A DNA stretch of 64,000 nt from Candidatus Moraniibacteriota bacterium (GTDB taxonomy: Bacteria > Patescibacteriota > Minisyncoccia > Moranbacterales > UBA1568), in assembly GCA_016699385.1 (NCBI GenBank), contig CP064974.1, positions 67,242-131,241 of the forward strand. Reading direction: 5' to 3'. Shown here in pieces: positions 1 to 28,267 of the stretch; within the stretch, counting starts at the first letter, position 1, and the number at the start of each line of letters is the position of its first letter. The notes under the pieces were generated by a model, which made no database searches, was not told the origin of the DNA, and was given only the letters and a program-made list of their open reading frames with translations. The translations under genes and the position numbers were made by a program.

Positions 1-1545
1 AATGTTGGTATTGGTACGGCGACGCCTGTCACTGGACTCGAGCTCTATAGCTCTGCGGCGAGTGATCGAATTTTCACGATTACTTCCAACACAACAACAA
101 ATGATCCTCTTATAAAATTCCGCACGGCAGCTACCTCTCTCGCAGTGAAGTTCTCCATCGGTGTCGATACTTCCGATAGCGATACCTTCAAGATTGACTC
201 CAATGACGGTCTCAGTACCTCGCCGGACTTCAAGATTGACTCGACTGGTGTGACAACTATTGCCAATGCCCGTCTCGGTGCGCAGAGTTTACCGGAGGAT
301 GGAGGTATTCTCTCTTGGCTTGATATGTCGGTGACCAGTTCATCGGTATCGGGAACAGTGGAAAGCTATAGTGCACAGATTGATAGCAACCCGGTTCTTA
401 CGGTGTATGCGGAAAGTGATGGATCGGGTGGTATTCAGAATCAAGGAGTTGGTATTGGCACCACGACGCCAGCATATATGCTTGACGTGCTTGCTTCTGG
501 CACCGGTGTTATTGCTCGATTTAACAGCAATAATAGTACGGGCTGTACGCTTGCGACCGGAGGTACGATAAGCTGTTCCTCTGATAGTCGATTGAAGAAG
601 AATATTCATTCAACAACATTGGGACTTGAGACGCTTCTTGCTCTTCGGCCAGTGGAATACAATTGGAATTATCAATCTGATGGCGATATGAAGAGCTTCG
701 GGTTTATTGCGCAGGAAGTTGGCGCACTTATTCCTGAACTCGTGAGAACGGATGATAGCGGATATCTCCAGCTGAACACTATTGGTCTCGTCCCTATTTT
801 GGCAAAGGCTCTTCAGGAAGAGAACACCAAAGTGACGACACTCGGCGCGAATGTCAGTGCGACCTCTCTCAAAACCACCGCAAATGCAACAACGCTTGCG
901 AGTTTGCAGTCATCAGTGGACGAGCAATTGACAGTTGTATCTGAAACGGAGAATGGTTTCGAAGTTCGTCTCGCGAGCCTTGAAGAAAAGGCGATAGATA
1001 CAACAGCGCTTTCGATCAAGGTGACAGATCTCGAATCCGCTGTGTCACTCCTACAAAGTTCGAACCAAGTGCTGCTCGATTTCTACAATTCATTGTCACT
1101 CGGCAATGTCCTGGTCAAGAATGCAGATGGCAATCTCGATCTTTCAAATGGAAAGATTCGCGCGAAGGAGCTCTCGACGGGTGCGCTCGCTATCGAGATT
1201 GTGGATGAAGAGGCGCCGACAATCGGCTCAGCAACACTTTTCCCGAAAGCGGTTGACAAGAAGGGAGAAAAGGATGCTGACGGCAATGATATTGCCGATG
1301 GATTTGATGATGTGTCAGGAGATTCTATGGAAGATCCGGATGTCTTGGCACGCAATGGGAAGCAGATAATCGTCAAAACAAAAGCGGTCAGTGTTGGATC
1401 GCGCATCTTCCTTACGCCCAAGCAGGCAATTGCCGAGCCACTTGCAGTCACTGATATTTCAGAAGGGGAGGGATTCACTGTTGAAATGAAAAATGAAACC
1501 TCTGAAGAAATCCCATTTGACTGGATCGTCGTGGAAGAGAAGTAA
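1..1545 (+). CDS. Tail-fibre-like surface protein with a C-terminal intramolecular chaperone (Peptidase S74) domain, then a coiled-coil and an acidic C-terminal region. The 5' end is truncated by the window.
   Basis: Frame 1 is open from nt 1 with no stop, so the gene starts upstream. The motif SDSRLKKNI...LRPVEYNWNY...FGFIAQEV...LVPILAKALQE matches the Ser-Lys autoproteolytic chaperone domain of phage tail spikes and endosialidases. Upstream repeats such as FKIDSxDG are fibre-like. Confidence 0.6.
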   Translation, partial: NVGIGTATPVTGLELYSSAASDRIFTITSNTTTNDPLIKFRTAATSLAVKFSIGVDTSDSDTFKIDSNDGLSTSPDFKIDSTGVTTIANARLGAQSLPEDGGILSWLDMSVTSSSVSGTVESYSAQIDSNPVLTVYAESDGSGGIQNQGVGIGTTTPAYMLDVLASGTGVIARFNSNNSTGCTLATGGTISCSSDSRLKKNIHSTTLGLETLLALRPVEYNWNYQSDGDMKSFGFIAQEVGALIPELVRTDDSGYLQLNTIGLVPILAKALQEENTKVTTLGANVSATSLKTTANATTLASLQSSVDEQLTVVSETENGFEVRLASLEEKAIDTTALSIKVTDLESAVSLLQSSNQVLLDFYNSLSLGNVLVKNADGNLDLSNGKIRAKELSTGALAIEIVDEEAPTIGSATLFPKAVDKKGEKDADGNDIADGFDDVSGDSMEDPDVLARNGKQIIVKTKAVSVGSRIFLTPKQAIAEPLAVTDISEGEGFTVEMKNETSEEIPFDWIVVEEK

Positions 1546-1788
1546 GGGAGAGAGGGAACAGCTTATAGGTGTTAGCTTATAGTTTTTAGGGAAAAGCGAG
1601 TATGGCGGTTTCTTCTGCAATGCAAAGAGCGGTGGTTTCGGTACCCTTGAACATTTCGGAAGGATGATGTTGCAGGATTCGAAAAGATTTTCTTCAATTT
1701 CTTCGTATCGCCTATGGATCCGGAGCGGAGCTTGAGACACAACTCGAAATTTCATTTCGTTTGAATCTAATCGAAAAAGGGGAATACC

Positions 1789-1815
1789 AAAAAACGGCTT
1801 CTCTTCTTGGAGAAG
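1789..1815 (-). terminator. Weak candidate rho-independent terminator for the minus-strand gene ending at 1945.
   Basis: 6-bp stem cttctc/gagaag with loop ttcttg. On the minus strand it is followed by a T-run (complement of ccaaaaaacgg). Confidence 0.3.
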
Positions 1816-1944
1816 TTATGAAAATGCTCAATTCTATGATTTCCAAACTGAGCAAAAAGTAGCCCGAAACCAGCTTTTAGCTTCTCGGTTTTAGCTTAGA
1901 GTTTCCTGTATCTCCTAAAAGCTAACAGCTATAAACTCTTGTTC

Positions 1945-2400
1945 CTACAACCCCGCCCCCTGCACCTGCCAATAGAAGTTTGAACACGTTGTATCCCGAC
2001 ACCCACACTTCCATCCACCACCTTGGATACTGCAGGTCATCCCGACAAAGTAGGCAGGGTCTATGGCACTTGCAGTCGAGATATCGGTATCGGTAATGGA
2101 AGCGGTGATACTTCCTTGGCACCATTCTCCATTGAGGGCACCGGTACAGGTGCCGGTAAACTGATGCCAGTCAGCAATACCGGGGTCATAGTAGTAGCCT
2201 TTGGTATACACGATCCTCGTCGAGTCACCGGTTTGTCCGAGAGTCGCTTGAATGGTATGGGAATCGGATGATGAGCAACTCGCATTGATGAGATTTGTGC
2301 TTGTTTGGAAGGCGTCGTATGGAGCTCCGTAACCGTTGTAGGCGGATTGGGAGAAGTTGGTAGTGGTGACAGTGTTGCAGGGGGAGAAGGTGTCGGTTCC
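1945..2400. repeat. Inverted-repeat copy A (3' end of gene 1945..4425). The distal core of about 300 bp is near-identical to 9945..10248.
   Basis: The reverse complement of 1945-2030 matches 10170-10248 almost base-for-base (ctacaaccccgccccctgcacctgccaatagaagtttgaacacg...). The encoded C-termini are identical from CTGALNGEWCQGSIT onward. Confidence 0.8.
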
Positions 2401-4425
2401 GCCTTGGGTGAGTGGCGTATTCATATCGGTTTGAATTTCCGTCTGCGTCAATGCTTTGTTGTAGATGCGGACATCGTCCACACTCCCGTTAAAAGCGCCG
2501 CTCGTGTATTCGGCATTCCCTCCGATTCTTACGGGGAAGTTGTTGGTTGAGAGGGTTTGCGTGAAACTTGCTTGCGCGTCGATGTTTCCGTCCACGTAGA
2601 GCTTCTTGGTTGTTCCGTCATACACGATAGCAACATGATGCCACGCGTCGTTTGCGACATTCGCGGTTCCTTGGAGATCATTGGCGCTTGGAGAGAAAGA
2701 GTTGAAGTCAAGCGTATTCGTTGACGCATAACGGGTGAGACTCCAGGAAGAATCTCCTTTGGAAACGAGTGCTGCCCAGGCGCTTCCGAAAGAAGCGGTT
2801 TTCATCCAGAGGGAGACGGTGAAATTGTTGGTGAAATCGAAGTCGGATTCATTGGGGATGCTTACGTAGGAATTGGCATTTCCGGAGAAAGAGATGCCAC
2901 TTCCGGTTTTGCCAGAAGACCACGTGGCATTGGAGAGCGTGCCGGTATGATTGTGTCCGGAGATATCGGAAGAGGTGGTGCCGGTTCCTTCATCGAAGTT
3001 GAGTCCGAGGAGGAGGTTTTGGGAGATGGGGGGCGGAGTGGTGACGGTGAGTACGAGAGTGGCCGTTCCGGTACCCGCCGCGTTGGTGGCGCGAATGGTG
3101 ATATTAGTCGTACCGGTTGTAGAAGGAGTGCCGGAGATAACGCCGGTATTCGTATTGACGGACGCCCATGCGGGGAGTCCGGTTGCATTGTAGGAAGTCG
3201 GTGTGTTGCTTGCCGTGATTTGGTAGGAAAAGGCGGAACCGGTGGTAGCCGAAGCGGTGAGGGGGCTCGTGATAACGGGAGTGGCGAGCGGTTGGGTCTT
3301 TGCGCTTACCACATTGGTCCAACCAGAGACATTCCCTGCCGCGTCACTCGCGCGGACACGATAGCTGTAGTCGGTATTCGGGGAGAGTCCGGTATTATTC
3401 ACAAATGGTGAGGTAGCGGGAGTACCGACCGTAGCAAACGAAGCGTCGGGACAGGCGGCGGGGAGACCGGTACAACGCTGGACCGTATAGCCGGTTACGC
3501 CGACATCGTCCGTGGCGGCGGTCCAGGTGACGGTAATAGAAGTAGAATTGGTGGCGTTCGCGGCGACACTCGTGCCAGTGGGCCATGCGGGAGGAGTGGT
3601 ATCGCTCCCTCCAGGGGTATTTGAAATAACCACATTATCATAGTAGACACTATACGGAGACCCTCCATAAAACTGGTTCCATCCTCCAAGGCAGATATAG
3701 TCAAAATAGAGGGAATTGCTATTGTCTCGGTTGGTAATACCCGTCAATCCAATAACCTTGACATTGTCGTACCAGACCTCATAAATAGCGTTTGTCTGAC
3801 TGTTGTCGTTATACTTCATATGGAGTTCCCATGTATGCCAATTACCATCCATGGCATTTATAGGACCAGGCTTGGTTCCGGTAACTGTTCCCCCACAACT
3901 GCTTGATCCCGCATAGGTTACAATTGATGCTGTGTCGCGAGTAGTTCCTGAACAGCCGTAGCTTAGTTGGTCAAATATATTGGTTTGATACGTAGTGGCT
4001 GTGGTAGTATTTGCATAGTTAGTTCCATTTCTTATGCCAAATAACTTTAAAAACTTTGTTCCACCAACACAACTTCCTGAACCACAATCAAACTTAAAGT
4101 TAAATTTAATATCTAGCTCTTGTGTATTAGCAGGCGCATCCCAATTATGCCAACGATCTCCACAGCTATTTGAATCACAGTTATAGATAATCTTTAGAGC
4201 ATTTGAACCATCCGGACCAGCTCCAACCGCAATAGAAGATGTCGACCCGGCGCTCCACCCATGATTATTGACTGAATCGGTATAATTGAAATTATCTTGA
4301 AAAAGAACGGCCGCCTGAGCGATACTCATATCTGCAAAGAGGAAAAAGCTGAACACGAAAATAAGCCCGCTCTTCTTGAAGGATGGCAAACAAAATCGAC
4401 GAGAAACAACAGGTTTTTTAATCAT
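1945..4425 (-). CDS. Large secreted multidomain surface protein: signal peptide, N-terminal Cys-rich jelly-roll domain, fibronectin-III domain, LamG (concanavalin-like) domain and a conserved Cys-rich C-terminal module.
   Basis: 826-aa ORF with N-terminal hydrophobic signal MIKKPVVSRRFCLPSFKKSGLIFVFSFFLFADMSIAQA. FN3-like block ...ITVTWTAATDDVGVTGYTVQRC...YSYRVRASDAAGN. LamG_3-like block LLLGLNFDEGTGTTSSDISGHNHTGTL...VDDVRIYNKALTQTEIQ. C-terminus ...CTGALNGEWCQGS...GGGWKCGCRDTTCSNFYWQVQGAGL is shared with two paralogs. Confidence 0.8.
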   Translation of the reverse strand: MIKKPVVSRRFCLPSFKKSGLIFVFSFFLFADMSIAQAAVLFQDNFNYTDSVNNHGWSAGSTSSIAVGAGPDGSNALKIIYNCDSNSCGDRWHNWDAPANTQELDIKFNFKFDCGSGSCVGGTKFLKLFGIRNGTNYANTTTATTYQTNIFDQLSYGCSGTTRDTASIVTYAGSSSCGGTVTGTKPGPINAMDGNWHTWELHMKYNDNSQTNAIYEVWYDNVKVIGLTGITNRDNSNSLYFDYICLGGWNQFYGGSPYSVYYDNVVISNTPGGSDTTPPAWPTGTSVAANATNSTSITVTWTAATDDVGVTGYTVQRCTGLPAACPDASFATVGTPATSPFVNNTGLSPNTDYSYRVRASDAAGNVSGWTNVVSAKTQPLATPVITSPLTASATTGSAFSYQITASNTPTSYNATGLPAWASVNTNTGVISGTPSTTGTTNITIRATNAAGTGTATLVLTVTTPPPISQNLLLGLNFDEGTGTTSSDISGHNHTGTLSNATWSSGKTGSGISFSGNANSYVSIPNESDFDFTNNFTVSLWMKTASFGSAWAALVSKGDSSWSLTRYASTNTLDFNSFSPSANDLQGTANVANDAWHHVAIVYDGTTKKLYVDGNIDAQASFTQTLSTNNFPVRIGGNAEYTSGAFNGSVDDVRIYNKALTQTEIQTDMNTPLTQGGTDTFSPCNTVTTTNFSQSAYNGYGAPYDAFQTSTNLINASCSSSDSHTIQATLGQTGDSTRIVYTKGYYYDPGIADWHQFTGTCTGALNGEWCQGSITASITDTDISTASAIDPAYFVGMTCSIQGGGWKCGCRDTTCSNFYWQVQGAGL

Positions 4426-4460
4426 AGAATCGCTTTATTTTATCTGAATAACATTCACTT

Positions 4461-5936
4461 TTATTTTCCCCTATTATACAGTTCCACTACTTCCGTCGCA
4501 GAGAGCGTCCGATTATAGAGGCGGACATCATCGATTTTTCCATAAAAACTGTATGAATCATAAGCTTCCCCCATGTTTAACGGTAAGTTATCAGTAATTG
4601 GAGTATACGCACTTGCACCACCATTATCAGTTTGTGGCACACCATTAACATACATCACTATGGTGTTTGAGCTATCTTTGTATGTTGCCACAATGTGATA
4701 CCACTCGTTTGTATTCACAATAGGCTGTGTAGTGGTAAGTTCATCGCGATAGGTTGGTCCGGTACTTGCAAATCCAAAATCCACATCGAGGTTGTCAGAT
4801 CCCGCATTGTAGAGATAGAGAAAGTAATTATTAGGTTTTCCGAAAATAAGCACGTATTGAGATGATGCTGGAAATGAATCCAAGCTCACCCACGCCGACA
4901 TAGATATTTCTCCGGTCGTTATGTCGAGACTTGTCGAATCTGCAACATCAATCCCAGTCCCATCAAAACTCAAAGCCTGTCCCAATTTCCCAATCACAGC
5001 AGAGGAGGCGGTGAGACCCACGGCATCCCCATGATTCCCTTTGCCGCTCACATCTTTGATCTCGTTACTCGTATCGCCCCAAATCACATCTGGTCCATCA
5101 AACGTCCAGTGTCCCACGAGTCCCGTATCAACCGGATCTCCCGGAACGGTGGTCTGATAGAGTCTTTTCACTGCATCTTCGGAGAGGGCTTTGCCATAGA
5201 GTCTGACATCGTCAATCTTCCCATCAAAAGGCACGCCCGCATCACTCTCGGCGCCGATACGGAAGGCATTCGCATTGGCGAGAGAATTGATGGCGGCGGT
5301 GGAGGTGGTGGTACTTCCATCGAGGCTGCCATCGAGATAGAGATACATCCCTGTGTTGTCATTCCAGACGGCGGCGAAGTGGTGCCAGCCGGTTGCGCTC
5401 AAATTGGTTGCACCGGTTGCGGAATAGGTATCGGTCCCGTCGGAAATTTCGAAATTGAGATAGTCATTGCCGGCATTGTTGTCGACCCAGACGACATAGC
5501 CCGCATTGGTGGTTTGGTCGGTTTTCTTGGCGACAATGGTGTGATCGGCGGCAAAGGTATCGCGATTGAACCAGCCGACGATAGTGAAGTCCGCGCCATC
5601 AACAAAGTCGAGAATGCCGCTTGCGGGATCAGCGATGGAGAGGTATTGTCCGCTTCCGGAGAAATCGAGAGAATAGGCGCCGATTTGCCCCGTAGTCCAA
5701 CTTGGAGAACCGGTCATGGCGAGTGTATTTCCGTTTCCACTGCTGTCAGTTGCGTTGGTGCCGGAGCCGTCATCGAGTTTCCAGTAGCCCAAGATGCCTT
5801 GGGAGAGGCGGTTTTCGATGGGGGCGTTTACGGTTTTGCTCGCTTCGGAGTTGAAGTCGTAGGTAAGTCCCACTGTTCCCGCGACAAAGAGAGCAATGAA
5901 GAACCACTGTGTTGCGCGGAGGAGGGAGATACGCAT
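4461..5936 (-). CDS. Membrane-anchored protein with two tandem LamG_3 (concanavalin A-like lectin/glucanase) domains.
   Basis: The ORF reaches 6038, but the likely start is the Met of MRISLLRATQWFFIALFVAGTVGLTY (a signal anchor) at about 5936. Two repeats match the LamG_3 signature: GYWKLDDGSGTNATDSSGNGNTL...DDVRLYGKALSEDAV and LVGHWTFDGPDV...DDVRLYNRTLSATEV. It is a paralog of 23794..25197. Confidence 0.75.
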   Translation of the reverse strand: MRISLLRATQWFFIALFVAGTVGLTYDFNSEASKTVNAPIENRLSQGILGYWKLDDGSGTNATDSSGNGNTLAMTGSPSWTTGQIGAYSLDFSGSGQYLSIADPASGILDFVDGADFTIVGWFNRDTFAADHTIVAKKTDQTTNAGYVVWVDNNAGNDYLNFEISDGTDTYSATGATNLSATGWHHFAAVWNDNTGMYLYLDGSLDGSTTTSTAAINSLANANAFRIGAESDAGVPFDGKIDDVRLYGKALSEDAVKRLYQTTVPGDPVDTGLVGHWTFDGPDVIWGDTSNEIKDVSGKGNHGDAVGLTASSAVIGKLGQALSFDGTGIDVADSTSLDITTGEISMSAWVSLDSFPASSQYVLIFGKPNNYFLYLYNAGSDNLDVDFGFASTGPTYRDELTTTQPIVNTNEWYHIVATYKDSSNTIVMYVNGVPQTDNGGASAYTPITDNLPLNMGEAYDSYSFYGKIDDVRLYNRTLSATEVVELYNRGK

Positions 5937-6055
5937 AAGCGAGGTTTTATTTGTAGACAGTATATCATGCCGGGACACAAATCTAGATGTATCACACCCT
6001 CTTTGAGACAAAAACCGTGCTATAATTCTCTCATCCATTCCTCATTCTTCCCTCC

Positions 6056-7396
6056 ATGCCTGCGCGCTTCTTCACCTGGATCATTATCCTCTTCTCCCTC
6101 ACCGTGGGAGCGGTTCTTTGGTGGCGACTTCAGGGGAAAAATCAAGGTCAAGCCGCAGAAACGATGAATGCGACGGTTCCAGGACCAACATCCTCCATTC
6201 TTGTCGGGCACTGGACACTTGATGGGAACGATGTTGTCTGGGGCGATACGACCAGTGAAATCAAAGACGTCTCGGGGTATGCGAAACACGGCGACTCTTC
6301 AAATCTCACAGCAGGAAGCGCAGTGGTAGGGCGAATTGGTCAGGGACTCCTTTTTAATGGAAGTAGCGACTCCATCTCTCTCGGCAATGTCTACAACGGC
6401 GTGAAAACCGTTTCCTTCTGGGCAAAGCCAAACTCAACAACACAGCCCTTTATTGATTTGAATGGCACAGCGACAATCAATATGACGTCCAGCACGGTAG
6501 CGGCGAATAACTTTACCAGTCCGACAATCTATGTGGATGGAACGGCAACCAGCACCTTTCCCAACACCAACTGGCATCATATCACTGTGACGACTGGAAC
6601 TAGCATTAATGCGAGCGCAGCATATTTGGGAAAAATCGCGAGCAGCTATTTCGGTGGTATATTAGATGACCTACGATTCTACTCAACTGAACTCTCTGCG
6701 ACGCAGGTTGCCGATCTCTACAGAAGTAGCGGCGCGAAGCAAACCATCAACTTCGGCATGGAAGGCACCTTGACCGATGGGCTCGTCGGGCACTGGACGA
6801 TGGACGGAAATGACGTCATCTGGGGCGATTCGAGTAGTGAGGTGAAGGATCGAAGCGGGAACGGCAACGACGGGGATGCCGTGGGTCTCACTGCTTCCTC
6901 CGCCGTGATTGGCAAATTGGGGCAGGGGTTGAGTTTTGATGGGACGAGTGATGAGATTAGTGTCCTCGGTCCGACCATTACCAATACCCATTCTTTCGTC
7001 GCATGGATTAAGCCGTCTGGAAATCTCGGAGGGTACAATTCGTTAGTGGAAAGTGACACTACCTTTATAGGCGTTTACCTTCAGGATAGTAGCAGTTCTC
7101 AATGTTCCTTTGTTCAAACTCTTAATTTCTACTATTCAAGTACAAGTCATTGCAGTAACACAGAAATTACGGATGATATCTGGACGCATGTCGCAGTGAT
7201 AAATAATGCAGGATCTGTCACTTTTTACGTAAATGGTGCCCCTGCCGGAACGGCGACAAGTGCTCCGGGTTACACTGCCGGAATGATCGGGAATGGGAAC
7301 TCCACCTCTTTTAAGGGTTCTCTCGACGATGTCCGCATGTATAACCGGGCACTTTCTGTAACCGAAGTGACTAATTTGTATACCATAGGGAAATAG
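6056..7396 (+). CDS. Membrane-anchored protein with two tandem LamG_3 domains.
   Basis: N-terminal TM segment MPARFFTWIIILFSLTVGAVLWW. Two repeats start LVGHWT(L/M)DGNDV(V/I)WGD and end DD(L/V)R(F/M)Y...LS.T(Q/E)V. It is divergently transcribed from 4461..5936. Confidence 0.75.
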   Translation: MPARFFTWIIILFSLTVGAVLWWRLQGKNQGQAAETMNATVPGPTSSILVGHWTLDGNDVVWGDTTSEIKDVSGYAKHGDSSNLTAGSAVVGRIGQGLLFNGSSDSISLGNVYNGVKTVSFWAKPNSTTQPFIDLNGTATINMTSSTVAANNFTSPTIYVDGTATSTFPNTNWHHITVTTGTSINASAAYLGKIASSYFGGILDDLRFYSTELSATQVADLYRSSGAKQTINFGMEGTLTDGLVGHWTMDGNDVIWGDSSSEVKDRSGNGNDGDAVGLTASSAVIGKLGQGLSFDGTSDEISVLGPTITNTHSFVAWIKPSGNLGGYNSLVESDTTFIGVYLQDSSSSQCSFVQTLNFYYSSTSHCSNTEITDDIWTHVAVINNAGSVTFYVNGAPAGTATSAPGYTAGMIGNGNSTSFKGSLDDVRMYNRALSVTEVTNLYTIGK

Positions 7397-7464
7397 TATT
7401 CACCTCCCATTTTTTTGCTATGCTTCTTTTGTGGTATTCTTAAAAAAATCTCAACCAAAAAACC

Positions 7465-10248
7465 ATGAAACAAAATTTGCTTGCATTCACGCTCTCTTCG
7501 ATTGGACTATTTTTCTTCCTTCTTCCTGCGCATGTTTATGCCGCTCAGACAACAGGTGGCGTCAACTGGCTTGATCCACTTGGGTATCAAAAGCCGGCAT
7601 TTTATCCGATCACGGTACCGGATGAAGCTACCGTGACAAACAAATATTATGTTGATATGAGTTCGGGCTCTGGAAGTGCGTGCTCTTCTTCAAGTCCCTG
7701 TGCCAATATTGACAATGTAATTGGAAAACCAGGTACAACTGGCGGGCCGGCCTATGTGTACGTTCGTGGCACGGGCAATCTTTCGCTCTATAATGATTCC
7801 TTCTACGGATCCGCAGGGAATGAAATCGTTATCAAGCCGTGGGGTACAGCGACCGCAACTTTTACTAGCAATTCAAACACCAATAGCTCCAATGTGCATC
7901 ACCTCATATTTGATGGTGGCTCGAATTTGGGAATTCGATTTCAATCCTCCGCTGGACAGTACTCCTTGCATGTTCTCTCGAATGATACGACGATTTATCG
8001 GACACAAAGTTTGTGTTCAGGATCTGGTGCGCTCTTGTTTTCTGTTGGCGATAGCAAGGTAAACTCAAATGTTGCATTTATCAATAATGAAGGTTATGGC
8101 TGTACATCTACTAATGATCAGGTAAGTTTTGTGTATGCTGGCCCGGGGGGTGGAGGCGGTTACTCAAACTTGAAAATACTCAATAATATTATTCGTGATA
8201 TGGGTGGTGAGGGTATTGAAATCAATCCTCGTGTTACTTCGAATAACCTCGAAATTACAGGAAACGCGATTCATAATATTGGGAAAGTTACTTGCTCTAC
8301 GGCATGGAACTGCCGTCCCGGTATTACTATGAGCGTACAGAGTGGTGGTGGTAACAATGGAACGGTTATTAAAAACAACCTCATCTGGGACACAGGTTCT
8401 GGTTGCGTGTGGGATAGGGGTGGAGGTACTCCCCGACCACTTATCGTGAACAATACATGCTACGATTATGCTAAGATTGGTAGTGACCCTTGGCCGAATG
8501 GCATTGCTGGGTATTCCGGCCCTGGAACAGCAACTGTATCGAACAATATCATTTACGCTCCAAACGGAACGAATCCACTGGATGGTACCTATGCGGGGAC
8601 CAACAACCTTTGTGGCTCCGGCAAATCCTGTGGCTCCTCCAGTCAAGCATGGAGTGCTAGCACGTTTCTCTCAACGAACGAAAACACATCGAACTTTCTT
8701 CAGATAGGTATAAATTCTACAGCCAAAGATACTGGCATAACCATAGCGAGTGTCACAAATGATTATGCCGATAATACTCGCCCTGTTGGCTCTGGCTGGG
8801 ATATCGGCGCTTACGAATACGGTACCTCCACTCCCGACACCACCTCCCCCACCTCTCCCACCACTCTCGCCGCAAACGCCACCAGTGCCTCGAGTATCAC
8901 CGTCACGTGGAATCCAGCAACCGACCCCACTACCGAGGGGCAGGCAACATCGGGCATCACTGGATACCTCATCGAACGCTGTACCGGACTCTCGTGTTCC
9001 ACCTTCACCCAAGTGGGAACTCCCACTTCCAACAGCTACTCCGACACCGGTCTCACTGCCACAACTCTCTACCGCTATCGCGTACGAGCAAACGATGGAG
9101 CCGGCAACAATTCTTCCTACTCAAACATTGTTTCCGCCACCACCCCCCAAGCCCCTCCTTCTCCCACCTTCGTCTCCGAATACGAAACTCCCTGGAATAC
9201 GAGTACCTCTCCCAAGACAACGAGTACTTTCAATGTTCAGTCAGGCGACATCCTCGTCGCCTATGCCGTGAATGAAAACTCCGGAAGTGTCATCACGACT
9301 CCTCCCACAGGAACCCTCTCCGGTACCTGGACACTCAAGCAAACGATTGCCGCCAGTAACGCCACCTACCTCCGTCTCTGGACGATGAGTGTCGCAACAA
9401 GCCAAACCAATGTGAATGTTGTCTTCACGAACGCGGGAGGCAACTTTGGAGGAGACGTCCTCCACTTCCGAAACGCGAGTAGTGTCGGTGTGACCGCCCA
9501 AGCCAACAGTGCGACCGGAAACCCAACCCTCACACTAAACGGCGTCAGTGAAAACTCATCCATCATCATGGTAAACGGAGACTGGAGTGCGAAGACTGGA
9601 GCAAGAACCTACAATACCACCCAAGCTGGATCCTTCACAGAAACCTCTGCCTATGCCGACGGATCAAGCTATGGAGTCGAAGCGGGCTACTACGAAAATG
9701 CCGGAACAGCAGGAAACAAAACAATTGGAATCTCTGCCCCAACCGGTATGTCTTGGTCACTCGCCGCAGTAGAAGTGAAAGGGAGTGGAACACCATCAAG
9801 TTCCTTCTCCTCCTGCTCCACTATCACTCCCGCCACCTTCCCAGGGAGTACCTACACCGGCTATGGTGCTCCCTATGATGTCTTTGCGAGTAATACTCCT
9901 CTCATAGCAACAGAGTGTAGCAGTGGTGATACCCATACCCTCAAAGCAACACTCGGCATTACGGGAGACACTACTCGAATCGTCTATACCAAAGGCTACT
10001 ACTATGACCCCGGTATTGCTGACTGGCATCAGTTTACCGGTACCTGTACCGGTGCTCTCAACGGAGAATGGTGCCAAGGAAGTATCACGACTTCCATCAC
10101 CGATACCGATATCTCAACCGCGAGTGCCACAGACCCTGCCTACCTTGTGGGGATGACCTGCTCGGTGCAGGGTGGCGGGTGGAAGTGTGGGTGTCGGGAT
10201 ACGGCGTGTTCAAACTTCTATTGGCAGGTGCAGGGGGCGGGGTTGTAG
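7465..10248 (+). CDS. Giant secreted surface protein: signal peptide, right-handed parallel beta-helix (pectate-lyase/NosD-like) region, DIGAYEY linker, FN3 domain, beta-sandwich region and the conserved Cys-rich C-terminal module.
   Basis: Signal peptide MKQNLLAFTLSSIGLFFFLLPAHVYAAQ. Beta-helix repeats NNIIRDMGGEGIEINPRV...ITGNAIHNIG...IKNNLIWDTGSG...SNNIIYAP. RPVGSGWDIGAYEY linker. FN3 block ITVTWNPATDP...YRYRVRANDGAGN. The C-terminal 100 aa are identical or near-identical to gene 1945..4425. Confidence 0.8.
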   Translation: MKQNLLAFTLSSIGLFFFLLPAHVYAAQTTGGVNWLDPLGYQKPAFYPITVPDEATVTNKYYVDMSSGSGSACSSSSPCANIDNVIGKPGTTGGPAYVYVRGTGNLSLYNDSFYGSAGNEIVIKPWGTATATFTSNSNTNSSNVHHLIFDGGSNLGIRFQSSAGQYSLHVLSNDTTIYRTQSLCSGSGALLFSVGDSKVNSNVAFINNEGYGCTSTNDQVSFVYAGPGGGGGYSNLKILNNIIRDMGGEGIEINPRVTSNNLEITGNAIHNIGKVTCSTAWNCRPGITMSVQSGGGNNGTVIKNNLIWDTGSGCVWDRGGGTPRPLIVNNTCYDYAKIGSDPWPNGIAGYSGPGTATVSNNIIYAPNGTNPLDGTYAGTNNLCGSGKSCGSSSQAWSASTFLSTNENTSNFLQIGINSTAKDTGITIASVTNDYADNTRPVGSGWDIGAYEYGTSTPDTTSPTSPTTLAANATSASSITVTWNPATDPTTEGQATSGITGYLIERCTGLSCSTFTQVGTPTSNSYSDTGLTATTLYRYRVRANDGAGNNSSYSNIVSATTPQAPPSPTFVSEYETPWNTSTSPKTTSTFNVQSGDILVAYAVNENSGSVITTPPTGTLSGTWTLKQTIAASNATYLRLWTMSVATSQTNVNVVFTNAGGNFGGDVLHFRNASSVGVTAQANSATGNPTLTLNGVSENSSIIMVNGDWSAKTGARTYNTTQAGSFTETSAYADGSSYGVEAGYYENAGTAGNKTIGISAPTGMSWSLAAVEVKGSGTPSSSFSSCSTITPATFPGSTYTGYGAPYDVFASNTPLIATECSSGDTHTLKATLGITGDTTRIVYTKGYYYDPGIADWHQFTGTCTGALNGEWCQGSITTSITDTDISTASATDPAYLVGMTCSVQGGGWKCGCRDTACSNFYWQVQGAGL
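9795..10248. repeat. Inverted-repeat copy B (3' end of gene 7465..10248).
   Basis: See copy A. A third, more diverged copy (about 70% protein identity) ends gene 25238..28267 at 27815..28267. Confidence 0.8.
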
Positions 10249-10292
10249 GGTGAGGGGTGGTGGATAATTTCCAATGAGCTGAGGTCTGAGTA

Positions 10293-23793: not shown

Positions 23794-25197
23794 ATGAAAC
23801 TCTCCCTCACACATTTCCTCCAGTGGGGCGGCATCGCTGCCGTGCTGCTTGTTGTCGTCGGACTCAACTACGATTTCGAATCCAAAGCCGGCATGCAGCT
23901 CAATGGTTCTGTCGAGAGCTCGCTCTCCCAAGGGATGCGCGGCTACTGGAAACTCGATGACGGCTCCGGCACCAATGCGACCGACAGTAGTGGAAATGCA
24001 AACACTCTCGCCATGACTGGCTCTCCCACCTGGAGTGCCGGACAAATCGGTCCATACATGCTCGACTTCTCCGGAAGCGGACAATACCTCTCCGTCGCCG
24101 ATCCCGCAAGCGGTGTCCTCGACTTTGCCAATGGAGCCGACTTCTCTCTCACGGGCTGGTTCAATCGAGACACTTTCACCGCCGACCACACCATCGTCGC
24201 CAAGAAAACCGACCAAGCTACCAATGCCGGCTATGTCGTCTGGATAGATGCCTCTACCGATACGGTCAACTTCGAAATTTCTGATGGTACCTATACCTAC
24301 GAAGCAGACTCTACCACAACATTCACATCAACCGGTTGGCATCACTTCACTGCCGTCTGGGATGATAGTCGTGGTGCCTCTGTCTATATTGATGGAGGAC
24401 TCAATGGAAGCACAGAAACCTCTACCAGTAGTATAGGAGACCTCTCGAATGCCAATGCCTTCCGTATCGGAGCCGAATCCGACGCCGGAGTTCCTTTTGA
24501 TGGCAAGCTCGATGATATCCGCGTCTATGGCTACGCTCTCTCTGCTGACGAAGTAAAGAAGCTCTACAATACCACGAGCCCCGCCCAACCCGTCGACACC
24601 TCCTTGGTCGGGCACTGGACGTTTGATGGTCCGGATATTCAGGGGAGTACCGCAATAGACAGGAGTAGCTTCGGGAACAATGGGACGATAACGGGAGCGG
24701 TACCGGTGAAGGGGAAATTGGGCCAGGGGATGGGGTTTGATGGGACGGGGGATTATGTTGAAACAAATTCAACCATTCCTGCTTCTGGAGCATTCTCCAT
24801 AAGTGCGTGGATCAATATGAAACAAATAAACGATCTCCCCTCAATTGTTAATACGAGCAACTCGATTTTTTATTATAGTTCTTATGTCAGTCGTCTTTAC
24901 TGGACGAACAATAACTACTCTACAAGAGTAGGAGGATCTTCCGCTTTAAATATCAATCAGTGGTATTTTGTGGTGGTTGTAAATAACAGTGATGACACGG
25001 CAACATTATACATAAACGGTACACAAGACGGGACAGCCAATCAAGCCGCGGGCTCAAGACTAGCAGGAGGAGAAATTTGTATAGGTGCTCGTTCTGATGG
25101 CCTGAAGCCTTTTAATGGGATCATTGACGATGTTCGCTTCTACAACCGCGCCCTCTCCGCAAGCGAAATCACCAACTTCTACAACATGGGGCGGTAA
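23794..25197 (+). CDS. Membrane-anchored protein with two tandem LamG_3 domains; paralog of 4461..5936.
   Basis: The likely start is the Met of MKLSLTHFLQWGGIAAVLLVVVGLNY (signal anchor); the ORF reaches back to 23731. Motifs GYWKLDDGSGTNATDSSGNANTL and LVGHWTFDGPDI. It is about 70% identical to the 4461..5936 product. Confidence 0.75.
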   Translation: MKLSLTHFLQWGGIAAVLLVVVGLNYDFESKAGMQLNGSVESSLSQGMRGYWKLDDGSGTNATDSSGNANTLAMTGSPTWSAGQIGPYMLDFSGSGQYLSVADPASGVLDFANGADFSLTGWFNRDTFTADHTIVAKKTDQATNAGYVVWIDASTDTVNFEISDGTYTYEADSTTTFTSTGWHHFTAVWDDSRGASVYIDGGLNGSTETSTSSIGDLSNANAFRIGAESDAGVPFDGKLDDIRVYGYALSADEVKKLYNTTSPAQPVDTSLVGHWTFDGPDIQGSTAIDRSSFGNNGTITGAVPVKGKLGQGMGFDGTGDYVETNSTIPASGAFSISAWINMKQINDLPSIVNTSNSIFYYSSYVSRLYWTNNNYSTRVGGSSALNINQWYFVVVVNNSDDTATLYINGTQDGTANQAAGSRLAGGEICIGARSDGLKPFNGIIDDVRFYNRALSASEITNFYNMGR

Positions 25198-25237: not shown

Positions 25238-28200
25238 ATGCAGTACGTCATTCATAGTTTGGTTGGGAGTAGGATTGGTTCGTTCTGTTTTTTGGTAGCG
25301 GTTTTTGTTTTCGGCGCGGCGGTTGTTTTTCCAGGAAAGGCGGAAGCAGCGACGTACTATGTGTCGAAAACAGGTGCAGATAGCAATCCCGGCACATCGC
25401 AGCAGCCGTGGCTGACTATAACCAAAGCGGCAAATACCATGGTCAGCGGTGATACAGCGCTGGTGGCTGCTGGGACATATAACGAGACCGTGCGAACGGT
25501 ACGCCACGGAAGCGTAGGAAATAGAATCACATTTCGAGCAAATGGGATTGCCAAAGGAAGCAAATTCTTTATTGATCATAATTATGTAACTGTAGAAGGG
25601 TTCAGTTTATCGGGATTTGGCGCGGTTGAGTCAATCGGTGACTATTGCGAAATCTCCAGTAACACATTTACGAACGGTGGGATTTTTTTTCCTCCGAATA
25701 GAGACCAAAAAGCGGACTATTGCGTTATCCGTGGCAATACCATTACCGTACCAACGCCGCAGGGAGCGGATTTCCCCACGATCATGATCTATGGCGATAA
25801 TAATCTTATAGAGAATAACGAGATTGGACCCGGCTATGATGTTGACTCATTCCGTCCGTTCGGATCAAACAATATCATAAGAAACAACTATATCCATGAC
25901 ATTTCTTACTCGCCGGGAAGTGCGGCGCACATAGACGTACTTCAATTCTACGGCATCAACGGTGATACCGTATATAATTTGCTATTTGAGAAAAACAGAG
26001 TCGCTAATTCTCAAGGACAAATGTGGATGACGGAGGTCCAAGGTGCAACCACCCTGAGTGACGTAATTATCCGCAACAATTTATTTTATAATGTTTCACA
26101 AAACGCTTATATAGGCGTCCCTAATTTTGAGGTATATAACAATACCTTTGTGAATACAGGGGTTATTTCGGTGCAAAAGGATTCGTACAAGATGAATGGC
26201 ATAAATGCCAAAATAAAGAACAATATCTTCATTACAAGTAAAGATGCTAATGCATCTTATGTTTATAACTTCATTGTTGCAAGCGGGGGGCCTAACCCGC
26301 AGGCAGATTACAACTGCGTAGCCTCCAATAGCTACAATACGATTACGTCTTTTTCAGAAGCAAACGGAATCAATGGGTGCAACCCTTTATTTGTTGATCG
26401 CTCCACTGGTGACTTCCGTCTCTCGACTGGCAGTCCAGCAATTGATTCGGGGGCGAGTCTTACCGTTAACGACGATATTACTGGGTTAACGCGTCCAGTA
26501 GGGGCTGGGTGGGACATCGGCGCCTACGAATACACTTCCGGCACCCCCCTCGACCCCGACACCACTTCTCCCACTTCTCCCACCGGCCTCGCCGCAAACG
26601 CCACGAGCCAATCGAGCATCACCGTCTCCTGGACCGCCTCGACCGATCCGATAGTCGCGGGACAGACCACCTCAGGTATTTCCAATTACATCGTCGAGCG
26701 CTGCCAAGGCTCCGGTTGTTCCACCTTCACCCAAGTCGGCACTCCGACCACCTCTCCCTTCGTCGACTCCGGCCTCACGCCAAACACCTTTTACAACTAT
26801 CACGTCCGCGCGACCGATGCCGCCGGGAATCTCTCCGGCTGGTCCAATGTGGTCGGTGCGACGACCCAAGCTCCTGATACGCAAGCGCCCACAGCTCCGA
26901 GCAATCTCCAAACCTCCGTCGTCTCATCCTCCAACATCAACCTCGCCTGGACGGCAAGCACAGACAATGTCGCCGTCACCAATTACACCGTCGAACGCTG
27001 CTCCGGAACTTCCTGCACCACCTTCACCCAAATCGCCACTCCAACGACCAACTCCTACTCCGACGCCGGTCTTACGGGAACGACGACCTACCGTTACCGA
27101 GTCCTCGCAACCGATGCCGCCAACAACACTTCCCCCTACTCGAATATTTCTTCCGCCACGACCCCCGTTGCGCCTCCCGTCTCCCAGTATCTCCAGGCGG
27201 GCTACAACTTTGCCGAAGGCACCGGCACCACCACCCAAGACATCTCCGGTCACAACCACACCGGTACTCTCTCCAATACCACCTGGTCGACGAGCGGCAA
27301 ATACGGAAACGCTCTCGACTTTAACGGAACGAGCAGCTCTGTCGGTATTGGAAACTGGAACATTCCCGGAAGCGCCATCACCCTAAGCGCCTGGGTACGG
27401 GCGGACGACTGGAAGACGGACGATGTCCGCATCCTCTCCAAAGCAACCGACAGTACCGAACAGGGTCATACCTGGATGCTCTCCGATTCCAATAGTCTCC
27501 TCCGCTTCCGCCTCAAAACCGGTGGCACAACCACAACCCTCGTTGCAACGAGCGGCACTCTCCAAACAAATGTCTGGACTCATGTCGCCGCGGTCTATGA
27601 CGGAAGCACGATGACACTCTACAAAGACGGACTCGAAGTCGGAAGCCAAGCCAAAACCGGCACCATCGATCAAAACACCGCCAACATTTCAATCGGAGCA
27701 AATCCCGAAGGCTCCAACTCCTTTGACGGTACGATAGACGATGTCCGCATCTACAACAAGGCGCTCACGCAATCAGAAATCCAAACCGATATGAATACCC
27801 CGCTCACCCAAGGAGGAAGCGGAACCCAAGTTTGCAACACCGTGACGACCGCGAACTTCTCCGATGCCGCTTACAACAGTTACGGCGCGCCTTTCGATGC
27901 GTTTCAAACGAGTACGAATCTGATGAATGCACTGTGCACCAGCGCCGACACGCATACCATCACGTTCACGACCGGAGTAACGGGAGACACCGCGAGAATC
28001 GTCTACACCAAAGGCTACTGGTACGATGCAATAGGAAGCGCCTGGCGACAATACACCGGCACCTGCACGGGAGCGCTCAATGGCGAGTGGTGCCAAGGCT
28101 CCGTCTCCGCGACGATCACGGATGCCAATGTCTCCACTTCCGGGACGGGCTCACCCACCTACCTGGTCGGGATGACCTGCAGTGTGCAGGGAGGTGGGTG

Positions 28201-28267
28201 GAAGTGCGGGTGTCGGGATACGGCGTGTGCGAGTTTCAACTGGCAGGTGCAAGGGGGAGGGATGTAG
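25238..28267 (+). CDS. Giant secreted surface protein: signal peptide, right-handed beta-helix, DIGAYEY linker, two FN3 domains, a LamG domain and the conserved Cys-rich C-terminal module.
   Basis: The likely start is MQYVIHSLVGSRIGSFCFLVAVFVFGAAVVFPGKAEA; the ORF reaches back to 25115 and overlaps the upstream gene. ATYYVSKTGADSNPGT...GDTALVAAGTYNETV is a typical beta-helix N-terminus. RPVGAGWDIGAYEY linker. Tandem FN3 domains. LamG block YLQAGYNFAEGTGTTTQDISGHNHTGTL...DDVRIYNKALTQSEIQ. C-terminus ...CTGALNGEWCQGS...GGGWKCGCRDTACASFNWQVQGGGM. Confidence 0.8.
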   Translation: MQYVIHSLVGSRIGSFCFLVAVFVFGAAVVFPGKAEAATYYVSKTGADSNPGTSQQPWLTITKAANTMVSGDTALVAAGTYNETVRTVRHGSVGNRITFRANGIAKGSKFFIDHNYVTVEGFSLSGFGAVESIGDYCEISSNTFTNGGIFFPPNRDQKADYCVIRGNTITVPTPQGADFPTIMIYGDNNLIENNEIGPGYDVDSFRPFGSNNIIRNNYIHDISYSPGSAAHIDVLQFYGINGDTVYNLLFEKNRVANSQGQMWMTEVQGATTLSDVIIRNNLFYNVSQNAYIGVPNFEVYNNTFVNTGVISVQKDSYKMNGINAKIKNNIFITSKDANASYVYNFIVASGGPNPQADYNCVASNSYNTITSFSEANGINGCNPLFVDRSTGDFRLSTGSPAIDSGASLTVNDDITGLTRPVGAGWDIGAYEYTSGTPLDPDTTSPTSPTGLAANATSQSSITVSWTASTDPIVAGQTTSGISNYIVERCQGSGCSTFTQVGTPTTSPFVDSGLTPNTFYNYHVRATDAAGNLSGWSNVVGATTQAPDTQAPTAPSNLQTSVVSSSNINLAWTASTDNVAVTNYTVERCSGTSCTTFTQIATPTTNSYSDAGLTGTTTYRYRVLATDAANNTSPYSNISSATTPVAPPVSQYLQAGYNFAEGTGTTTQDISGHNHTGTLSNTTWSTSGKYGNALDFNGTSSSVGIGNWNIPGSAITLSAWVRADDWKTDDVRILSKATDSTEQGHTWMLSDSNSLLRFRLKTGGTTTTLVATSGTLQTNVWTHVAAVYDGSTMTLYKDGLEVGSQAKTGTIDQNTANISIGANPEGSNSFDGTIDDVRIYNKALTQSEIQTDMNTPLTQGGSGTQVCNTVTTANFSDAAYNSYGAPFDAFQTSTNLMNALCTSADTHTITFTTGVTGDTARIVYTKGYWYDAIGSAWRQYTGTCTGALNGEWCQGSVSATITDANVSTSGTGSPTYLVGMTCSVQGGGWKCGCRDTACASFNWQVQGGGM

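Follow-up and report, generated by a model that had tools for sequence, protein, structure and literature searches.

On how CPR/Patescibacteria recognise their hosts or substrates and stay attached to them, the literature found goes no further than suggesting that their many ConA-like lectins might mediate attachment. A role in adhesion for the LamG proteins of Patescibacteria/DPANN has been put forward as speculation only (PMC12911398, PMC9563170). The stretch of Candidatus Moraniibacteriota DNA analysed here (64,000 nt; contig CP064974.1, positions 67,242 to 131,241; hereafter the window) encodes membrane proteins with tandem LamG domains next to large secreted proteins, and raises the question of whether these neighbours form a functional unit, and of what kind.

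Gene pairs in the window

Three pairs of a LamG-pair gene and a large-protein gene are present in the window, and in each the LamG-pair gene is co-oriented with its partner and lies directly 5′ of it. Gene B (4461..5936, minus strand, 491 aa) is followed after 35 nt by gene A (1945..4425, minus strand, 826 aa), gene C (6056..7396, plus strand, 446 aa) after 68 nt by gene D (7465..10248, plus strand, 927 aa), and gene E (23794..25197, plus strand, 467 aa) after 40 nt by gene F (25238..28267, plus strand, 1009 aa). The first two pairs are transcribed divergently, and the 119 bp spacer between the starts of B and C (5937..6055) is presumably the promoter site of both two-gene units. The initial annotation had recognised a real pairing but counted it twice; what it described as a first module comprises two divergently transcribed pairs, so that there are three pairings, not two, while its second module, on one strand with a 40 nt gap, corresponds to E and F as described. 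The chance of finding three out of three such co-oriented adjacencies among about 47 genes is roughly 8e-6 by an analytic estimate, a figure limited by the fact that the three pairs are paralogues and not independent events. Promoter and terminator scans, which themselves performed no better than on shuffled sequences, detected nothing resembling a terminator in any of the three gaps. Given the short gaps, the two genes of a unit are probably co-transcribed, and their products would act at the cell surface.

The third pair lies in the order DUF11, tgt, rpoB, rpoC, ftsK, E and F, DUF5671, rpsF, ssb, efp and gyrB, in agreement with the gene order reported initially (DUF11-tgt-rpoBC-ftsK, pair, rpsF). 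To describe the pairs as inserted between housekeeping genes is nevertheless misleading, as other genomes hold such pairs at the same positions; the sites are long-standing loci with contents that turn over.

A Peptidase_S74 (endosialidase-chaperone) protein (145..1545) adjoins the first pair, and ConA-like lectin genes have been reported in phages of Patescibacteriota (PMC12911398), both of which would fit a phage-derived host-recognition module, i.e., a prophage receptor-binding protein with an accessory gene. However, among 2.9 million viral contigs there were no relatives of the C-terminal Cys module of the large proteins (see below) and the LamG matches were faint, no viral structural match was obtained, and phage structural or integrase genes are absent around the pairs. 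With the viral-contig searches negative and housekeeping genes flanking the pairs in conserved synteny, a prophage origin was rejected and is highly improbable.

The tandem LamG proteins

The initial assignment of 4461..5936 and 6056..7396 to LamG-pair proteins holds, each encoding an N-terminal hydrophobic helix followed by two Laminin_G_3 domains (PF13385). B, C and E match this family in two stretches each, scoring 181.4, 100.7 and 182.4 bits where the cutoff is 27.6. In B, the hydrophobic anchor precedes a constant LamG1 domain (aa 44–264), a junction with the motif GKLGQALSF (aa 316–324), a variable LamG2 core (aa ~328–463) and a conserved tail. Protein E is 53% identical to B overall; at the DNA level their LamG1 regions share 73% identity, and their LamG2 regions are without similarity. 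Protein C is a divergent subtype: behind the anchor helix its LamG1 is shorter, its junction reads GKLGQGLSF and its LamG2 is variable. In self-blastn of the window, a stretch of 167 nt at the junction is 79% identical to the DNA of B. NCBI gene models from a Candidatus Moraniibacteriota contig of 1,111,322 bp have the same starts as B and E (491 aa and 467 aa, ‘LamG domain-containing protein’). B is identical to NCBI protein P0155, for which an exact-sequence look-up returned no record, and E corresponds to P0182.

Two assignments to known families were considered and rejected. A type IV pilin or pseudopilin with a grafted lectin module would carry a class III signal peptide (G/FTLxE), and this motif is absent from the N-termini (MRISLLRATQWFFIALF..., MPARFFTWIIILF... 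and MKLSLTHFLQWGGIAAV...), which also gave no match to N_methyl. The second candidate was TafC (NF052521), the tip subunit of haloarchaeal Tat-fimbriae, the LamG domain of which has been proposed to be adhesive (PMC11821415). The LamG part of this profile (positions ~150–370) was matched, with an E-value of 5e-25 for B, but the best score was 88.3 bits against a cutoff of 410 bits, the TafA-like N-terminal donor-strand domain was unmatched, and there is neither a Tat signal nor a taf gene nearby.

In fold, predicted extracytoplasmic location and type of organism, the proteins resemble the ConA-like lectin/LamG surface proteins of Patescibacteria/DPANN. The reports cited above consider those singly, however, and mention no seemingly obligate Cys-module partner, LamG1/LamG2 split or cassette exchange. 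The product of the first gene would be anchored in the membrane with its N-terminus inside, exposing two domains of the LamG type, a concanavalin-A-like lectin fold, to the exterior. A LamG fold by itself is no proof of lectin activity, and ligand binding is putative.

The secreted partners and their Cys module

Proteins A, D and F are large, although at 826–1009 aa the original label of ‘giant’ is generous, and the beta-helix/FN3/LamG architecture ascribed to them applies to F only, A having a weakly lyase-like jelly-roll N-terminus, and D being without LamG and with a beta-helix that is at most putative. Protein A (identical to database protein P0011) consists of a signal peptide, a weakly polysaccharide-lyase-like payload, FN3, He_PIG and LamG_3 domains, and the Cys module (aa 676–826). 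Its payload resembles a jelly-roll and gave no beta-helix signal; classification as a polysaccharide lyase is a lead only, with scores below cutoff for both PF14099 (23.9 against 29.9 bits) and PF21294 (21.0 against 27 bits).

In D, the signal peptide is followed by an unclassified all-beta payload, FN3, a conserved but unnamed middle domain (aa ~561–780) and the Cys module (aa 776–927). The payload, which has no Pfam or PDB match, ends in a choice-of-anchor-Q motif (choice_anch_Q, 27.6 bits, cutoff 25); in an AF2 model built from an alignment of eight sequences (pLDDT 46, pTM 0.46), short beta-strands alone are visible. Protein F has a signal peptide, a predicted right-handed beta-helix payload, two FN3 domains, LamG_3 and the Cys module. 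The payload carries a DUF1565 cap (24.6 bits, cutoff 20.3) and choice-of-anchor-Q, and its sequence matches in the PDB are a GH120 xylosidase (3vst, 2.5e-11), a rhamnogalacturonan lyase of PL9 (5olq) and a parallel beta-helix protein (9rx2). Judged by the first 350 aa, the pairs carry at least 11 payload classes, and most payload N-termini have no family match in Pfam and NCBIfam scans. Among the relatives, the match to PL14 is above the Pfam cutoff and that to pectate lyase is just under it. The surface lectin suggested initially is in line with prediction, which places both proteins of a pair outside the cytoplasm; their domains are of lectin fold and of carbohydrate-enzyme-like type.

The C-terminal Cys module, of 150 aa with eight cysteines, is confined to A, D and F in the window (three tblastn matches), which share it at 81% and 69% identity. 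It is confidently modelled as a beta-sandwich, matches no Pfam or NCBIfam family, known carbohydrate-binding modules and C-terminal sorting domains included, and has no match among PDB folds (best TM 0.35, E > 0.01). According to the model, it is an undescribed beta-sandwich domain, which would be disulfide-rich and form the constant C-terminal end of the second gene product. An exhaustive profile search placed its family at 808 representative clusters, where a word-index protein search had given 10 relatives, mostly fragments. At the DNA level, the Cys module of A (1944..2265) is an inverted repeat of that of D (9928..10249), and the two copies (87.6% identity over 322 nt, self-blastn of the window) enclose both divergent pairs. 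At another locus (L125), the C-termini of two large proteins are identical. From these identities, gene conversion within a locus is evident.

How the secreted proteins would be held at the cell is suggested by their ends. The signal peptides of A, D and F look cleavable, and no further anchor is visible in their sequences; D and F carry choice-of-anchor Q, which marks surface proteins whose C-terminus usually serves for sorting or anchoring; and LamG_3 directly adjoins the Cys module in A, F and two relatives (L013, L015). These features could be explained by docking, with the membrane LamG-pair protein serving as a receptor, LamG1 binding the Cys module, and LamG2 and the payload sharing a target. 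Against this, some Cys-module proteins have no LamG-pair neighbour (in CP064994.1, L010 and L125), and distant homologues carry the module at the N-terminus, beside GH26 (110 bits) or GH16 with CBM60, a position like that of a carbohydrate-binding module and unlike that of a docking tag. Docking is rather unlikely.

The general plan of these proteins, with signal peptide, catalytic-like domain, FN3 spacers and terminal beta-sandwich, is that of modular secreted CAZymes ending in carbohydrate-binding modules, and the GH26 and GH16+CBM60 domains of the distant relatives fit it as well. They differ in that the Cys module has no family or PDB fold match, its carbohydrate binding being putative, and in that ordinary CAZyme loci contain nothing like the dedicated lectin gene upstream.

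Conservation of the pairing

A tandem-LamG gene lies directly upstream of about 21 of the 29 close-clade Cys-module genes with usable upstream sequence, where pairing was counted as a co-oriented gene with at least two LamG domains as the immediate 5′ neighbour; many of these units are paralogues or orthologues, and the counts are not independent. The paired loci are the three of the window, two in L002, and those of L003, L006/L047, L008, L009, L011, L012, L013, L015/L060, L023, L040, L042, L046, L048, L049, L120 and the 716-aa gene of L125. L014 is also paired, with an rve insertion sequence between the two genes, the sole interruption found. The eight unpaired exceptions are L010, the 839-aa protein of L125 and six genes of the complete Moraniibacteriota genome CP064994.1. 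Of the seven Cys-module loci in that genome, six have a full gene model, and all six lack a LamG-pair gene upstream. The Cys-module family at large is independent of a LamG partner.

In the reciprocal direction, every metagenomic LamG-pair relative of at least 45% identity is followed by a signal-peptide protein, and this ends in a Cys module wherever the contig is long enough. LamGx3 proteins of 30–35% identity never have a secreted neighbour of the Cys-module type. The flanks vary by locus (ftsK/DUF5671, rpoB, recQ/parB, ftsA-like and others), and since the flanking genes differ, it is the pair that persists as a unit. The synteny test thus passed in both directions, and within the Moraniibacteriota-type clade the pairing is a conserved unit and not a chance adjacency, as had been proposed.

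Constant and variable regions

The main new finding is that the unit has a constant-variable-constant cassette structure extending over both genes. The constant parts are the transmembrane helix with LamG1 at one end and the FN3/Cys region at the other; between them lie the variable LamG2 core and payload. Averaged over 30 homologues, the top residue reaches a frequency of 0.78 in LamG1, compared with 0.33 for the core of LamG2. Between units, LamG1 identity ranges up to 99% and down to 23%, and LamG2 identity does not exceed 57%. The motif GKLGQ[AG][LM]xF occurs at the LamG1/LamG2 boundary in 21 of 21 LamG-pair proteins.

Near-identical genomes bear different cassettes at one site. In two syntenic genomes with flanks of 95–99% identity, no DNA similarity is left in precisely the interval from the junction to the Cys module, in both pairs. 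Comparing L002 with L042/L040, identity is 98.9% through rpoC, rpoB and LamG1, breaks off at about aa 336 of the LamG-pair protein, and returns at 89% in the Cys module and 94.6% beyond; the pattern is repeated at the other pair on these contigs. Similar breakpoints were seen in most other comparisons of units, and in the window against CP064989.1.

The two variable parts appear to be linked in some units. The three highest LamG2-core similarities (0.70, 0.53 and 0.39; median 0.10) belong to the units with the three highest payload similarities, a signal that comes from three unit pairs, and in two of these LamG1 is unrelated. Mantel/mirror-tree comparisons gave r of about 0 for LamG1 or LamG2 against the Cys module and for LamG2 core against payload, no correlation for payload against Cys module, and a weak correlation for LamG1 against payload (r = 0.23, p = 0.02). 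Since neither LamG domain correlates with the Cys module, a co-evolving cognate LamG-Cys pair was rejected as a supported claim. Docking would account for the missing co-divergence if LamG1 and the Cys module, as is possible, are inter-compatible among paralogues. The joint travel of LamG2 and payload could also be a passive result of their position between two recombination arms.

The variable C-terminal domain of the first gene and the variable N-terminal domain of the second adjoin each other, are exchanged as one and segregate together irrespective of LamG1, and a conserved motif marks the constant/variable junction, as in polymorphic toxin loci. Toxin-immunity and tail-fibre-chaperone pairs are likewise swapped as cassettes. 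By this likeness, LamG2 might bind its own payload as a guard or chaperone, inhibiting an envelope-degrading enzyme or aiding folding or export. It is improbable that it does so: for the lectin fold of LamG no role in inhibition or immunity is known, the partner, large and bearing a signal peptide, is unlike a small immunity protein, LamG2 and payload similarities are uncorrelated overall, and the LamG partner is absent for some of the large proteins.

The absent mirror-tree signal could also mean that the two genes are functionally uncoupled, their adjacency being a relic of the duplication of an ancestral two-gene block and the cassette pattern following the homology that permits recombination. 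Consistent with this, the constant parts are homologous in all units, and gene conversion within loci can be read from the A/D Cys modules and the L125 C-termini. Yet in several genomes and at least 11 payload classes the two genes stay adjacent and in the same orientation, most gaps being below ~150 nt, while the neighbouring genes are not kept and the one interruption found is an insertion sequence. With LamG1 diverged down to 23% identity, an unselected adjacency would be expected to have decayed, making an uncoupled relic fairly improbable.

Comparison with other cassette systems

Loci of the CDI-Rhs type have a constant N-terminal region, a junction motif and a variable C-terminal domain that is exchanged together with the next gene. 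The units described here share the sharp, motif-marked constant/variable junction (GKLGQxLxF) and the joint replacement of the end of the first gene and the adjoining part of the second. They differ in having no T5SS or T6SS context and in their second gene, the product of which is large, secreted and multidomain; this gene has a constant 3′ end of its own, which bounds the cassette on its second side. The likeness is an analogy of architecture and not homology. Membership of the polymorphic toxin-immunity systems was rejected, as no toxin, immunity or secretion-system domain came up in Pfam and NCBIfam scans. With the cassettes of phage tail fibres and their assembly chaperones, and with other receptor-binding loci that recombine, the units share a variable recognition domain swapped along with a neighbouring segment between conserved flanks, and lectin-like and beta-helix depolymerase-like domains; unlike these, they are chromosomal, in conserved synteny with housekeeping genes, have no viral homologues among the contigs and structures searched, and have a membrane-anchored upstream protein.

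Proposed function and significance

On balance, the two-gene unit is probably a variable surface module for glycan recognition and degradation that is diversified by cassette exchange. The first gene product would be the anchored LamG protein. The second would be exported by the Sec pathway and would carry a variable N-terminal payload (a polysaccharide-lyase-like jelly roll, a right-handed beta-helix, or an Ig/IPT-type or unclassified domain), FN3/Ig spacers and the constant Cys module. Homologous recombination in the conserved arms would exchange the middle block among paralogous loci as well as from strain to strain, diversifying what the surface recognises. The likeliest role would be to bind and cleave glycans at the cell surface, the target being a host envelope or a polymer substrate, with LamG2 and payload as a matched specificity pair and with retention by LamG1 and the transmembrane helix, possibly also by the Cys module. 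Contact between the two proteins, as in the adhesin with partner or chaperone proposed initially, is conceivable on this arrangement, and so is a part in host attachment.

The locus provides a testable object for the question of how these cells recognise their hosts or substrates: a defined gene pair, a motif-marked boundary, cassette differences, and an unannotated domain that is found with glycoside hydrolases and lyases. The constant arms could be used as primers or probes for surveying cassette diversity, and the host or substrate range of uncultured Moraniibacteria could be predicted from cassette types if it is LamG2 and payload that set specificity. Somewhat doubtfully, the units may represent a new polymorphic surface system of CPR bacteria, in which LamG2 and the catalytic or recognition head of the secreted partner, as a cognate pair, are swapped as one cassette via the LamG1 and Cys arms, and the Cys module is a new, CPR-specific family for glycan binding or anchoring. 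If so, a genome-reduced episymbiont would gain a switchable repertoire of host or substrate specificities, and the locus would be a host-range locus, similar in logic to phage tail-fibre cassettes or to the swapping of CDI toxin/immunity genes.

Gene pairs and domain content

Three tandem-LamG (LamG-pair) genes, B (4461..5936, − strand), C (6056..7396, +) and E (23794..25197, +), each encode an N-terminal hydrophobic helix and two Laminin_G_3 domains (Pfam scores of 181, 101 and 182 bits, respectively). In all three units the LamG-pair gene is directly followed by one large, co-oriented gene: A (1945..4425, −, 826 aa), D (7465..10248, +, 927 aa) and F (25238..28267, +, 1009 aa), with gaps of 35, 68 and 40 nt. 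A terminator scan found no terminator-like sites in any of these gaps. The large proteins carry cleavable-looking signal peptides (signal peptides and topology were assessed by eye and hydropathy) and a C-terminal cysteine-rich module (Cys module). The initial annotation treated the first four genes as a single module and saw the pairing twice; they are actually two divergent pairs (A←B and C→D), which brings the number of pairings to three. Its coordinates for B and E agree with the NCBI gene models, which are named LamG domain-containing proteins (Candidatus Moraniibacteriota MAG, 1.11-Mb contig), and the housekeeping context it described is correct: DUF11, tgt, rpoB, rpoC, ftsK, the E-F pair, a DUF5671 protein, rpsF, ssb, efp and gyrB. 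The database also holds a protein identical to A.

The secreted proteins differ in domain content. By profile scans, A has a weakly polysaccharide-lyase-like N-terminus (sub-threshold) followed by FN3, He_PIG and LamG_3 domains. F carries a DUF1565-type beta-helix, two FN3 domains and LamG_3, and its beta-helix matches the PDB sequences of a GH120 xylosidase, a PL9 rhamnogalacturonan lyase and a parallel beta-helix protein. D has FN3 and an unnamed middle domain, while its variable N-terminal part (payload) matches only a choice-of-anchor-Q motif and no family. The middle domain (9145..9810, aa ~561–780) has no Pfam or PDB sequence match, is 75–83% identical to segments of other large partners (L003, L002, L048, P0014, P0025 and P0032), and appears from these matches to be a further unannotated mobile domain. 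A 278-aa stand-alone homologue of the A payload (…LFQDNFNYTD…HGW…SSIAVGAGPD) is encoded at 2830..3666 of locus L045, after a LamGx4 gene and without the FN3 or Cys part.

Two other reading frames lie at the first double pair. A 466-aa protein (145..1545, +) has a Peptidase_S74 domain (endosialidase intramolecular chaperone) at aa 146–201 by Pfam, with no NCBIfam match, followed by coiled-coil-like sequence; it is a tail-fibre-like surface fibre that immediately adjoins the double pair. The 378-aa, low-complexity, Gly/Ile/Glu-rich ORF antisense to B (5031..6167, +) is almost certainly a shadow ORF and not a gene.

The Cys module

The C-terminal module of A, D and F is about 150 aa long with eight conserved cysteines (identity 81% for A-D and 69% for A-F), and tblastn against the 64 kb window gave exactly three copies. 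No Pfam or NCBIfam model covers it, and it is an undescribed domain family. An exhaustive profile search gave 808 representative clusters at E ≤ 1e-3 and 35 at E ≤ 1e-30. In distant members the module is either right behind the signal peptide or C-terminal, and is accompanied by GH26, GH16 with CBM60, PL14, Golvesin_C or Kelch domains (a pectate-lyase match was sub-threshold). AlphaFold, using a 42-sequence alignment, predicted an all-beta sandwich with very high confidence (pLDDT 97, pTM 0.90). Foldseek returned nothing significant for this model in PDB (best TM 0.35) or BFVD; CBM21 and beta-glucan-recognition domains are among the weak neighbours and serve only as leads. Given its companion domains and position, an accessory glycan-binding module would fit, and a surface-retention domain is possible.

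Conservation of the pairing in related genomes

If the pairing reflected chance adjacency, it should not recur in related genomes, and synteny was examined from both partners. In 185,579 species-representative genomes, a pattern scan located 37 Cys-module loci, mostly labelled Moraniibacteriota. Upstream partners were scored with home-made HMMs and our own ORF maps, setting aside contig-end and frameshift cases. In the close clade, a co-oriented gene with at least two LamG domains was directly upstream of ~21 of 29 Cys-module genes with usable upstream sequence, a tally that includes paralogues and orthologues, so that the counts are not independent. Among the paired units are the three window pairs, two on L002, and one between recQ and parB in the complete genome CP064989.1. 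The eight unpaired genes are L010, one of the two large partners at L125 (CP064989.1), and six of the seven Cys-module loci of the complete Moraniibacteriota genome CP064994.1 (L016–L022). None of the six CP064994.1 loci with a full gene model has an upstream LamG-pair gene, and the seventh (L022) is a partial match without a clear gene. The module thus functions without a LamG partner in that lineage.

The reciprocal metagenome scan with LamG-pair proteins gave 80 loci. For relatives of at least 45% identity, the next gene downstream encoded a signal-peptide protein in every case, and this partner ended in the Cys module unless cut by a contig end or frameshift (L040, L042, L046, L047, L048, L049, L060). 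The many LamGx3 proteins at these metagenome loci (~700 aa, 30–35% identity) never had a Cys-module-type secreted neighbour, and tended towards tandem arrays. Co-occurrence is therefore conserved within one clade, where the LamG-pair and Cys-module genes form a two-gene unit and not a chance adjacency; neither domain family shows it generally. Grouped by the first 350 aa, the secreted partners make up at least 11 classes, and the flanking genes vary between loci. Purely passive adjacency is unlikely, since the pair persists across these payload classes and neighbourhoods. The sole interruption seen between the two genes is in L014, which is syntenic with the E-F pair (DUF5671-efp-gyrB downstream in both), where an rve-family integrase (insertion sequence) at 6876..7751 lies exactly between them.

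The JGI contigs L001 and L002 (3300056827 / 3300056788) are frameshift-ridden, with rpoB and rpoC each in 2–3 ORFs and the large partners in four pieces, probably from assembly frameshifts; for this reason a word-index search gave only short 'stand-alone' Cys-module proteins. A few loci are labelled Bdellovibrionales or Burkholderiales (L011, L012, L013, L014 and others). As their LamG1 (first LamG domain) is up to 91% identical to that of Moraniibacteriota CP064989.1, these labels probably represent binning or naming errors. At L125, syntenic with the first double pair, the directly adjoining genes (73..5217) include type IV pilus genes, encoding PilB-like T2SSE, PilC-like T2SSF and an N_methyl pilin, as well as genes for a response regulator and a PAS histidine kinase.

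Cassette replacement between constant ends

The units have a constant-variable-constant anatomy. Across 30 aligned LamG-pair homologues, LamG1 has a mean top-residue frequency of 0.78 (entropy 0.85 bits), compared to 0.33 (2.67 bits) for the core of the second domain, LamG2, and the final ~28 residues are conserved again. Between units, identity reaches 99% in LamG1 and at most 57% in LamG2. The constant/variable boundary carries the motif GKLGQ[AG][LM]xF, found in 21 of 21 partner proteins. In the secreted proteins, conservation is highest in the Cys module (mean 73%).

The variable block has been replaced between near-identical genomes. This is clearest for L002 and L042/L040, syntenic contigs of closely related organisms, which share 98.9% DNA identity over rpoC and rpoB and as far as codon ~336 of the LamG-pair gene. 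Identity vanishes over LamG2, the intergenic gap and the entire payload, is back at 89% within the Cys module, and stands at 94.6% across four downstream genes. A second pair on these contigs, in the opposite orientation, shows exactly the same pattern. Breakpoints at LamG residue ~327–338 and the FN3/Cys end recur in the window paralogues and in most other unit pairs compared. Between the window and CP064989.1, the 77% identity of the DUF11-tgt-rpoB flank extends directly into the Cys module of D and ends there.

The LamG2 core co-segregates with the payload: the three cores most alike are those with the three payloads most alike (three unit pairs, two of which have unrelated LamG1 types). 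Globally, by contrast, LamG parts and Cys module did not co-diverge (Mantel r about 0).

A self-comparison of the window DNA shows an inverted repeat (1944..2265 and 9928..10249; 322 nt, 87.6% identity) composed of the Cys-module ends of A and D and flanking the ~8-kb double pair on both sides. The two large partners at L125 have identical C-termini. Cys modules are homogenised within a locus, which suggests gene conversion or a potential inversion.

Relationship to known systems and proposed mechanism

Within the Laminin_G_3 superfamily, the LamG-pair proteins are unexceptional. They are not pilins, and TafC was rejected (88 bits against a 410-bit cutoff, only the LamG region matching; PMC11821415). 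Viral searches were negative, making a phage origin unlikely. The literature found on Patescibacteria ConA-like lectins and DPANN LamG proteins presents them only as candidate adhesins (PMC12911398, PMC9563170), and it contains no description of the pair, of the Cys module or of the cassette structure. The closest architectural analogues are CDI/Rhs toxin-immunity and tail-fibre/chaperone loci, in which a variable domain is swapped together with the gene next to it at a conserved junction, but none of their defining components is present at the LamG/Cys-module loci. We rate the units as a recombining polymorphic surface locus, with lineage and parts not described before.

In the mechanism we propose, the two genes would be co-transcribed, the first giving an N-in membrane protein with LamG1 and LamG2 outside the cell, and the second a secreted protein. 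Together, the products would act at the cell surface as one unit in glycan recognition and, probably, cleavage. Specificity would be set by LamG2 and the payload, while the conserved parts may serve in anchoring or assembly and as homology arms for cassette exchange.
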